Source of the DNA: a virus
Taxonomy: Duplodnaviria; Heunggongvirae; Uroviricota; Caudoviricetes
Reading direction: 5' to 3' (one strand)
Length of the DNA stretch: 4,669 nucleotides
Virus record (IMG/VR): IMGVR_UViG_2703718850_000005
Both the position numbers and the translations under genes were made by a program. Below the pieces are notes generated by a model. It had not been told where the DNA came from, searched no databases, and was given only the letters and a program-made list of their open reading frames with translations. Positions 1,672 through 2,551 of this stretch are shown here, piece after piece; the stretch's first letter is position 1; every line of letters starts with the position of its first letter.

Positions 1672-2551
1672 CACAATACTCCTGCGGGATTTTTGAATTT
1701 GAGCAGCTCACGAAACTGAGCTGCTGTTTTTACATTTAGGCCGGAATCTGCACAGATGTCTCTGAATCCGGCTCCGGCTGAGTAGTCGAGGATGTCGCTG
1801 ATGACGTGTTCGCCGTCGCGCCAGAACTGGCGGCTGATTTCAATGTCGGCAATGAAGCGATCCATTCCGTAAGATTCAATAACGAGCATTGAGTGCTCCA
1901 TACTCCATTGACCACATCCATAGTCCCCTTCGCCTGCTCCGGTGAATTTATCGACGAGACGCATGTAAAAAAAATGAGCTCACCCGCCACTTCATCCAAA
2001 TCAATGATTTCACGCTCCAGCGCCATATCGAGAGGGATTGTGTCGTAGCCTTTACCCTCCACTGGGTAAACAAGGTTTGCCAGGCGAATGACCTCATTAA
2101 CAAGTGTATTACGGACCCCTTTTTCCTGTTCAGTGTTAATCGCTTCCCCGGTGATTTCCATTTCAATACCACCCGGTTGAGGTTTTTCGCCACTCTGAAT
2201 CACTGCCTGATCCACTGCGTTATTCAGCGATACGGCGCTGGCTGCGAGAATTTCTTCTGACAGGGATTCCAGATTTTCCGTTTTCTGCTCCGCGCAATCC
2301 TCAATGCGACCGACGCTCACAGGTTTATCGATGGAATAGCAGATACCGGAAAAATTCTTGTCCACCTTGTCACAACGCTGGAATCCGTAAGGCTCATGCT
2401 GTCGGATGATGTGGTCGATAATATCGGACTGATTTTCGATCATATGCTGACGTCCGGACGGAATTGTCACACCGAACGACTGCGTTTTTTCGGGGAGTTT
2501 GTAGTTGAACGTGTGCGGCTGACGTGAGCAGTTAGCGATGTAGAGCTTCAT
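1671..2551 (-). CDS. Putative tail assembly chaperone, -1 frameshift fusion product (0 frame 2551..1967, slip on T8, -1 frame 1967..1674, stop 1673..1671; about 293 aa)
   Basis: The 0 frame from ATG 2551 and the -1 frame (the 97-aa ORF 1671..1964 in the track) are both open across 1736..1979. The -1 frame has a stop at 1982..1980 just upstream of the T8 run and no SD before its internal ATG 1964, so independent initiation is unlikely. The -1 frame has globular-looking composition and its stop overlaps the next gene start (TGATG). The slippery pattern T_TTT_TTT fits a -1 shift. Alternative: a homopolymer length error or variation (T9 would give a single in-frame ORF). Confidence 0.5.
1679..1683 (-). 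promoter_or_regulatory. Shine-Dalgarno (AGGAG) for the large downstream gene
   Basis: Minus-strand AGGAG sits 7 nt upstream of ATG 1671, inside the end of the overlapping -1 frame ORF. Confidence 0.55.
1736..2551 (-). CDS. 0-frame product of the same gene (271 aa), acidic protein; putative tail assembly chaperone G-like form
   Basis: ORF-track ORF 1736..2593, but the upstream ATG 2593 lies inside the terminator hairpin with no RBS, so I place the start at ATG 2551 (MKLYIANCSRQ...). The protein is Asp/Glu-rich. After the T8 run the 0 frame turns into a low-complexity Ser/Thr-rich tail of about 76 codons, which may or may not be translated as a real C-terminus. Confidence 0.55.
   Translation of the reverse strand: MKLYIANCSRQPHTFNYKLPEKTQSFGVTIPSGRQHMIENQSDIIDHIIRQHEPYGFQRCDKVDKNFSGICYSIDKPVSVGRIEDCAEQKTENLESLSEEILAASAVSLNNAVDQAVIQSGEKPQPGGIEMEITGEAINTEQEKGVRNTLVNEVIRLANLVYPVEGKGYDTIPLDMALEREIIDLDEVAGELIFFTCVSSINSPEQAKGTMDVVNGVWSTQCSLLNLTEWIASLPTLKSAASSGATANTSSATSSTTQPEPDSETSVQIPA
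1967..1974 (-). other. Candidate -1 recoding site: T8 homopolymer (plus-strand A8), slippery T_TTT_TTT
   Basis: Read directly from the sequence: minus strand GAG CTC ATT TTT TTT ACA TGC in the 0 frame; slipping -1 gives ...TTT TTT TAC ATG CGT (Y M R L V D K F...). A weak SD-like GGTGAG lies 4 nt upstream (plus 1979..1984). I see no obvious downstream hairpin. Confidence 0.5.

Follow-up and report, generated by a model that had tools for sequence, protein, structure and literature searches.

A conserved T run as the probable slip site of a G/GT-type −1 ribosomal frameshift in contractile-tailed temperate phages, retained as a probable relic in a deleted Escherichia coli prophage

The stretch analyzed here (IMG/VR virus record IMGVR_UViG_2703718850_000005; 4,669 nucleotides, referred to as the window), with all of its genes coded on the minus strand, harbors a run of eight T residues (T8) shortly upstream of a large gene that occupies the position of a tape-measure gene. 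Comparison with related loci makes it very likely that this run serves contractile-tailed temperate phages as the slip site for a G/GT-type −1 ribosomal frameshift, and that in the window it persists intact but probably as a functionless relic. The phages are of the Rac-SA53/E. coli W prophage type, distantly related to Felixviridae. Most ribosomes on the native gene would read through the run and produce a folded protein of ∼170 residues with a disordered Ser/Thr-rich tail. A minority, with P and A sites both occupied by tRNA-Phe on T_TTT_TTT, would slip back by one base, take Tyr as the next residue and read an alternative C-terminal domain of ∼100 residues that ends precisely where the tape-measure-position gene begins. 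Both products would have their first 129 residues in common, and low-level slippage on U_UUU_UUU would suit a chaperone role. The ribosomal nature of the shift, its low efficiency, the tail-chaperone role of the proteins and what their two C-termini bind are points that we infer.

The initial annotation had read the minus strand around the run as GAG CTC ATT TTT TTT ACA and had proposed a slip into a −1 frame that is closed immediately upstream and ends on the start of the next large gene. The sequence statements were correct: GAG lies at 1981–1979 and ACA at 1966–1964, and the −1 frame follows a TGA at 1982..1980 and stays open to the TGA at 1673..1671, whose last A is also the first base of the ATG (1671..1669) of the next large open reading frame (ORF), giving TGATG. 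The elements at the site, in window coordinates, are the following.

1967..1974, minus strand: T8 run, with the in-phase heptamer T_TTT_TTT at 1973..1967 (0-frame ATT TTT TTT), followed by A
1671..1979, minus strand: −1 frame ORF, closed upstream by TGA 1982..1980
1674..1967, minus strand: productive −1 part after the predicted slip, 98 codons, YMRLVDK...PAGVL
1736..1966, minus strand: predicted dual-coding stretch, 76 sense codons of the 0 frame plus its stop, read in the 0 and −1 frames
1931..1961, minus strand: weak 5-bp stem YGTCT/AGRYG, starting 5 nt past the run; not a convincing stimulator
1..1671, minus strand: tape-measure-position gene, 5′ 557 codons, cut by the contig end (691 amino acids in locus L060)

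The two Phe codons of the site are codons 194–195 counted from the ATG at 2551, and the products predicted for the window are 271 amino acids in the 0 frame (stop at 1736) and 293 amino acids by −1 fusion. The run by itself was not beyond chance: the window contains one TTTTTTTT, where 0.70 would be expected, and at least one turned up in 78 of 200 shuffles. Its significance comes only from the comparison with relatives.

The enterobacterial set for this comparison consisted of 58 IMG/VR loci, which reduced to 41 distinct sequences. The full comparison covered ∼65 distinct sequences with 37–100% identity in the N-terminal domain (N-domain), drawn from Enterobacteriaceae prophages, metagenomic viruses, a Sphingomonadaceae metagenome-assembled genome (MAG) and four cultured phage species; Rac-SA53, vB_Kpn_Chronis and PdC23 were among the cultured phages read. 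T8 was found at the same position in 39 of the 41 enterobacterial sequences, with varying flanks (ATT/GTT; GAG CTC, GAA CTC or CAG CTT), and the remaining two carried T9, one of them along with other indels. A further 25 distinct relatives, with N-domain identity as low as 37%, have T8 or T7, and another, L145, has T9. Distant loci at 37–71% N-domain identity, which come from metagenomic viruses, the Sphingomonadaceae MAG and a contig binned as Thaumarchaeota, keep (G/A)TT TTT TTT A(C/T), the exception being L063 with TGT TTT TTT ATC. The same layout was observed in vB_Kpn_Chronis (T8) and in Pantoea phage PdC23 (T7, TGT TTT TTT ATT), and tblastn recovered it, split in two, from Klebsiella phages RothC and RothD; these four phages belong to the family Felixviridae (PMC12451628). 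Every member read had the in-phase T_TTT_TTT save three T9 sequences (L002, L058, and L145), and the three T's that the heptamer places at third codon positions were invariant, as against 87% of wobble sites variable in the N-domain. The conserved core is thus the in-phase heptamer T_TTT_TTT followed by A, and the eighth T is supplied by the preceding Val or Ile codon (GTT/ATT). The pure 8-nt homopolymer pointed out as unusual in the initial annotation is real, although what is conserved is the T7 heptamer, and two lineages have T7 only. Alignment of homologous loci, which had been suggested as a check, bore out the two-frame layout across the ∼65 sequences, with single-ORF forms being rare. 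As a separate observation, contig JAGWHB010000021.1 (L064/L065), binned as a Thaumarchaeota MAG, carries a member of this phage tail module, T8 site included, and was probably misbinned rather than being an archaeal virus.

In intact prophages such as that of E. coli EC11 (locus L001), the site lies in a 205-amino-acid gene, with the T8 at codons 127–129 (L001 12467–12474), and a −1 shift there would give a protein of 227 amino acids (129 + 98 residues). The native gene order is tail sheath (phrog_205, E = 5e-53), a gene of ∼143–146 amino acids, the 205-amino-acid gene, the large gene and then baseplate genes. The same order was seen in 12 of 12 distant loci examined, with the −1 stop there adjoining or overlapping the start of the following gene. 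The overlapping ORF pair is therefore placed, in native loci, between the genes in the tube and tape-measure positions, as in G/GT systems; in the window, the sheath and tube genes are deleted. Altogether, the relatives present a startless −1 ORF, an in-phase heptamer of the X_XXY_YYZ type and a two-frame layout conserved in diverged members.

The −1 frame becomes open only 6–33 nt ahead of the run in all loci, continues for ∼100 codons and ends at or overlapping the start of the next gene, which encodes 570–694 amino acids in the relatives. The encoded domain shows 29–63% identity to the reference in relatives and the motif ...YG..RF..D(I/V)(D/E)..R.(F/Y)WRDG.H..S..LD...G.GF...FR.R..., with seven invariant columns (Y162, G163, D170, R175, G196, F197, and R215) among sequences that are ∼30% identical. 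An ATG follows directly after the run in all enterobacterial members (1964..1962 in the window). No Shine-Dalgarno sequence was found at a workable distance from it, the nearest G-rich stretch ending 14 nt upstream, and the majority of distant relatives have CTG, ATC, GTC or GGT in its place (reading YLRV, YISI, YVSI, YLPL, and YGF), with no conserved ATG or GTG. The −1 frame, as judged from these features, appears to be expressed via recoding and not from a start of its own.

An exhaustive phmmer search returned 626 relatives, mostly 0-frame proteins of ∼190 amino acids matching only residues 1–130 of the fusion. A few single-ORF proteins of 227–263 amino acids matched both parts, and their junction reads ...FFY... 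(...VFY... in one). As ...FFY... is exactly the product predicted for the shift, these forms were counted as support for a −1 shift. The single-ORF forms with readable DNA are T9 variants, L002 (IMGVR_UViG_2896595138_000001) and L145 (IMGVR_UViG_3300004607_000085); whether natural or artefactual, they encode the long form only and, if real, would do without the short form. Other fused proteins of close relatives change frame at scattered positions, like sporadic indels, and in a cluster look-up the fused and unfused representatives were all singletons at 90% identity. With too few fused sequences for an alignment, no confident model of the −1 domain was obtained.

The 0 frame past the slip site is likewise under constraint. 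It stays open for 57–76 codons in all relatives, its tail showing ∼33–44% overall identity and 28–59% identity to the reference, with the motif ...W..Q...LN.TE(F/W/Y).ASLP... and the terminus (S)(I/V/L)P(S/V). F128, F129, T162, and L168 are invariant, as is W152 in a further comparison. AlphaFold2 prediction of the native 205-amino-acid protein from an 18-sequence alignment gave a mean predicted local distance difference test score (pLDDT) of 82. The predicted fold is confident at residues 8–170 (pLDDT ∼87–92 at 130–170) and disordered at 175–205, and a predicted helix at 123–135 spans both Phe codons of the slip site. In the enterobacterial set, 43% of the third positions of the 0 frame vary in the overlap as compared with 87% upstream (Fisher p = 1.5e-10); for the −1 frame the figures are 41% in the overlap and 73% in the part where it alone is open (p = 0.014). 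The overlap is accordingly predicted to be dual-coding, because wobble variability is suppressed in both frames, both sequences are conserved and the predicted fold includes the 0-frame tail. Such dual coding would also be why the plain ratio of nonsynonymous to synonymous polymorphism (pN/pS) in the overlap favored neither frame (0.70 versus 0.58; control frame 1.47).

The overlap geometry departs from that of lambda in that 57–76 conserved 0-frame codons follow the site and residues 130–170 are predicted to fold with the N-domain. We lean towards a variant of the G/GT scheme, in which the shift takes place within a helix of a folded chaperone of ∼170 residues, so that a common core of 129 residues would be joined to one of two alternative conserved C-terminal modules. 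It is also somewhat more probable than its converse that recoding swaps a domain and is not a simple extension, the 57–76-codon overlap being kept from Enterobacteriaceae prophages to Felixviridae and alphaproteobacterial relatives. Beside this, the end of the 0-frame product was seen to be a disordered stretch rich in Ser/Thr/Ala (L001 12475–12705; window 1736–1966) with a conserved C-terminus (S)(I/V/L)P(S/V/A), exemplified by SIPS, SVPS, and SLPS, and by QIPA/QIPV in E. coli, which looks like a short docking motif.

Several observations weigh against a ribosomal G/GT-type shift. U_UUU_UUU is reported to shift much less readily than A_AAA_AAG in E. coli (PMC5009743). No convincing stimulatory RNA structure was detected in the enterobacterial clade, where the single-sequence fold had a z-score of 0.49. 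The chaperone-position family had no match to any Pfam or NCBIfam chaperone family and none among PDB sequences in profile searches, its predicted fold had no significant match in the PDB, and in Foldseek against BFVD the matches to annotated tail assembly chaperones were all weak. The tube and tape-measure identities are assigned from position and size only. Finally, slippage of the RNA polymerase on U8 would yield an identical product (...FFY...). This is the main rival, in which reiterative transcription on T8/A8 would add one U to some of the mRNAs and the fusion would arise by normal translation. It is considered unlikely, though it is an established recoding route (PMC5009743), and both the pure 8-nt homopolymer in most members and the want of a strong downstream stimulatory structure in the enterobacterial clade agree with it. 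However, it is the in-phase heptamer and not the run length that is conserved in every lineage, and L063 and PdC23 represent two lineages with only T7, a length below the ∼9 nt of runs known to slip efficiently in E. coli. Moreover, one distant clade has a hairpin at a spacing typical of ribosomal −1 stimulators. In these loci (L132–L144), an 11-bp hairpin (GTGTCCATGAT...ATCATGGATAC, 25-nt loop) starts 6 nt past the T run; across five distinct sequences, three of its pairs show one-sided changes (GU/AU/GC) that leave the pairing intact. The enterobacterial clade lacks it, and the consensus stem there has an energy of −3.9 kcal/mol and almost no covariation. An upstream Shine-Dalgarno-like GGTGA/AGGTGA, lying ∼6 nt ahead of the heptamer, was weighed as a candidate stimulator and dropped, as it coincides with conserved Gly-Glu codons; its spacing is also shorter than the optimum of the dnaX type.

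It is highly improbable that no recoding occurs and that a 205-amino-acid protein and a separate protein of ∼97 amino acids, started at the ATG 1964..1962, are made from independent overlapping genes. That ATG is present in all enterobacterial members and some annotations do call the 97-amino-acid ORF separately (phrog_14324; P0127), but it has no Shine-Dalgarno sequence within reach and is missing from most distant relatives that keep the domain and the T run. Independent genes would also leave unexplained the three invariant synonymous T's of the heptamer and a −1 frame that always opens only just upstream of the run. Even less credence is given to the T8 being a sequencing or assembly error, a pseudogene frameshift mutation or a phase-variable T8/T9 tract. 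Homopolymers are error-prone, and T9 versions coding for a fused protein of 227–233 amino acids do exist (L002, L145; P0001 on 6 contigs). Nevertheless, thousands of contigs carry the 205-amino-acid T8 forms (at least 1000 for P0012, 676 for P0028, 280 for P0079, and 248 for P0044) against 6 for the exact T9 fusion, T8 or T7 persists over 37–100% N-domain identity, and the indels of the other fused proteins are scattered in the manner of sporadic errors. A conserved 0-frame tail that is predicted to fold would not be expected of a pseudogene, and the tract was not polymorphic in length among close strains as a phase-variable one would be, given the near-uniform T8 (39/41) of the enterobacterial sequences.

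The window itself is an E. coli prophage of the Rac-SA53/E. coli W type that has suffered two internal deletions and is defective. No record among complete E. coli genomes and phages matched it in one piece by megablast; alignment showed it to consist of three pieces that are collinear with the EC11 prophage and 99.9–100% identical to it. The pieces, the junctions and the resulting chimeric ORF are as follows.

Window 4669..4567 (L001 879–981): piece 1, within the terminase small-subunit gene
Window 4571..2121 (L001 6001–8451): piece 2, from the interior of the DUF2213 gene through a 205-amino-acid gene and a 342-amino-acid capsid-like gene into a 156-amino-acid gene
Window 2125..1 (L001 12316–14440): piece 3
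Window 4567..4571: deletion junction 1, terminase small-subunit gene (L001 981) joined to the interior of the DUF2213 gene (L001 6001); 5.0 kb lost, 5-nt CTACC microhomology, in frame
Window 2121..2122: deletion junction 2, L001 8451 joined to ∼12320; 3.9 kb lost including the sheath and tube genes, 2-nt AA microhomology, in frame
1736..2551, minus strand: chimeric 0-frame ORF, 271 amino acids
2122..2551, minus strand: 5′ part of the chimera, ∼144 codons from the 156-amino-acid gene after the capsid gene (EC11 L001 8021–8491; rac46 in Rac-SA53; phrog_6737)
1736..2121, minus strand: 3′ part of the chimera, codons 78–205 of the native 205-amino-acid chaperone-position gene (WP_000684992.1-type; rac52; phrog_11810)

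The deletion at junction 2 removed the tail sheath gene (the phrog_205 match given above) and the 143-amino-acid gene in the tube position, and joined the last 128 codons of the native gene to another gene. Hence the proposal of a G/GT-type shift ahead of the tape-measure-position gene stands as regards the conserved heptamer, the startless −1 ORF, the conserved −1 domain and the synteny, but the gene described in the initial annotation is a deletion chimera with 144 foreign codons and not the native chaperone gene. The placement of the site about 195 codons into the gene is an artefact of the deletion, the native site being at codons 128–129 of 205, and so are the 271- and 293-amino-acid products, which correspond to native products of 205 and 227 amino acids. 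The chimera is real and not a local misassembly, since the exact 271-amino-acid protein recurs on 5 public contigs; these include LOPD01000099.1 (GCA_001576205.1; locus L061), whose entire length is the window in reverse complement, a 104-kb contig of GCA_900478705.1 that runs on into baseplate genes, and a contig of GCA_017721715.1. Ribosomes may still slip at this site, but with the first 77 residues of the native chaperone-position fold missing from the chimera and the sheath and tube genes gone, it very probably survives in a defective prophage as a relic with no function.

Some further features of the window and of its relatives were noted. Both deletions create fusion ORFs, one joining the N-terminal part of the terminase small subunit to the C-terminal part of the DUF2213 protein and the other the rac46-like gene to the chaperone gene. 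Two in-frame junctions would arise by chance in about 1 of 9 cases, so that polarity or selection against truncated products may have played a part. Each end of the window is a break in the assembly within a gene that is also found in other prophages. Between the capsid-like gene (stop 2609) and the gene after it (ATG 2551) there is a terminator-like hairpin, GGGGAGC-TAAAT-GCTCCCC and then TTTTTTG (window 2571–2589, minus strand); this is the usual site for post-capsid attenuation of transcription. A gene with HSDR_N domains, of the restriction-enzyme N-terminal type, has been inserted into the baseplate gene cluster of the remnant (L060 8597–9757). Rac-SA53 and similar relatives carry an LT-IIa enterotoxin and a pertussis-like toxin gene beside the lysis module (L146 1–3373). 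The 478-amino-acid gene after the large terminase (L001 2793–4229) is named “anti-CBASS protein Acb1 family protein” by the Prokaryotic Genome Annotation Pipeline (PGAP), yet it is in the portal position, and the name may be an artefact. PP818812.1, “Actinobacillus phage vB_Apl-pPE4,” shows 98% identity over 2.4 kb to the E. coli prophage described here; the host label seems doubtful, unless a transfer took place very recently.

Scans against Pfam, NCBIfam and PHROG matched the chaperone-position protein, the −1 ORF and their neighbors only to self-referential PHROGs of unknown function, apart from the sheath. The tape-measure-position gene had a strong match to phrog_7694, weak matches only to tape-measure and transglycosylase PHROGs, and none in Pfam or NCBIfam. 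The 205-amino-acid gene is a “hypothetical protein” with no recoding annotated in the PGAP record of EC11 and in the GenBank records of Rac-SA53, vB_Kpn_Chronis, and PdC23, and the −1 ORF is likewise a “hypothetical protein” in these. The publications consulted on these phages are silent on a frameshift: the KlebPhaCol preprint contains neither “frameshift” nor “chaperone,” and Rac-SA53 is named in just one paper, an unrelated one. Comparative evidence presents the T run as a real, conserved and, in the public records read, unannotated candidate signal for a G/GT-type −1 frameshift, of a known class and with an unusually long overlap. Its recognition assigns a putative function to two ORFs and points to the neighboring tube and tape-measure genes, in a prophage region matched in 93 of 5,426 complete E. 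coli genomes and in relatives that include the newly named Felixviridae. The family in the chaperone position has so far been unannotated and is without a match among solved structures. A long overlap conserved in two frames, with the slip site inside a predicted folded domain, offers a tractable case for asking how the two forms of a chaperone differ, in which the long form would replace, and not lengthen, the end of the short form. The window also serves as a caution, as its odd apparent geometry stems from a deletion in a decaying prophage.

Among known systems, the layout is most readily compared with gpG/gpGT of phage lambda (Levin et al., 1993; Xu, Hendrix & Duda, 2004, 2013, 2014, as summarised in PMC5009743). 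In both, there would be two products with a common N-terminal part, the second made by a −1 shift into a startless ORF, and the pair lies directly upstream of the gene in the tape-measure position in a layout conserved among relatives. In lambda, binding to the tape measure is the task of the short form and of the G portion of the long one, the T portion brings in the tail tube protein, and the two forms are made at a ratio of ∼30:1 (PMC5009743). The present proteins differ in showing no detectable similarity to the lambda pair in sequence or solved structure and in belonging to a contractile tail. The slip site is G_GGA_AAG in lambda and U_UUU_UUU here, and the lambda shift occurs close to the G gene's 3′ end (PMC5009743), as compared with ∼63–68% of the way along the 0-frame gene. 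The long form in lambda extends the short one, whereas here it would replace its conserved C-terminal part.

Phage P2, with E and E+E′ in its FETUD operon (Christie et al., 2002), is closer in tail type, having a contractile tail and the same succession of sheath, tube, frameshifted chaperone pair and tape measure, along with a T-rich slippery run and a shift in the −1 direction. There is no sequence similarity to the P2 proteins, and the sizes are 91/142 amino acids in P2 versus 190–205/227–233 here. The P2 shift takes place a few nucleotides before the E stop, with a short overlap. HIV-1 gag-pol (U_UUU_UUA) and E. coli dnaX (A_AAA_AAG) are alike in tandem slippage on X_XXY_YYZ, HIV-1 having a U6 core as well; unlike the present enterobacterial sites, for which no convincing stimulator was seen, they depend on a downstream stem-loop, and dnaX also on an upstream Shine-Dalgarno sequence. 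The A9 of Thermus dnaX and the T9 of Shigella mxiE, which are sites of transcriptional slippage, are similar in that a homopolymer opens a second frame. Their runs, however, are typically of at least 9 nt and their phase is irrelevant, whereas in the phages described here it is an in-phase T7 core that is conserved.

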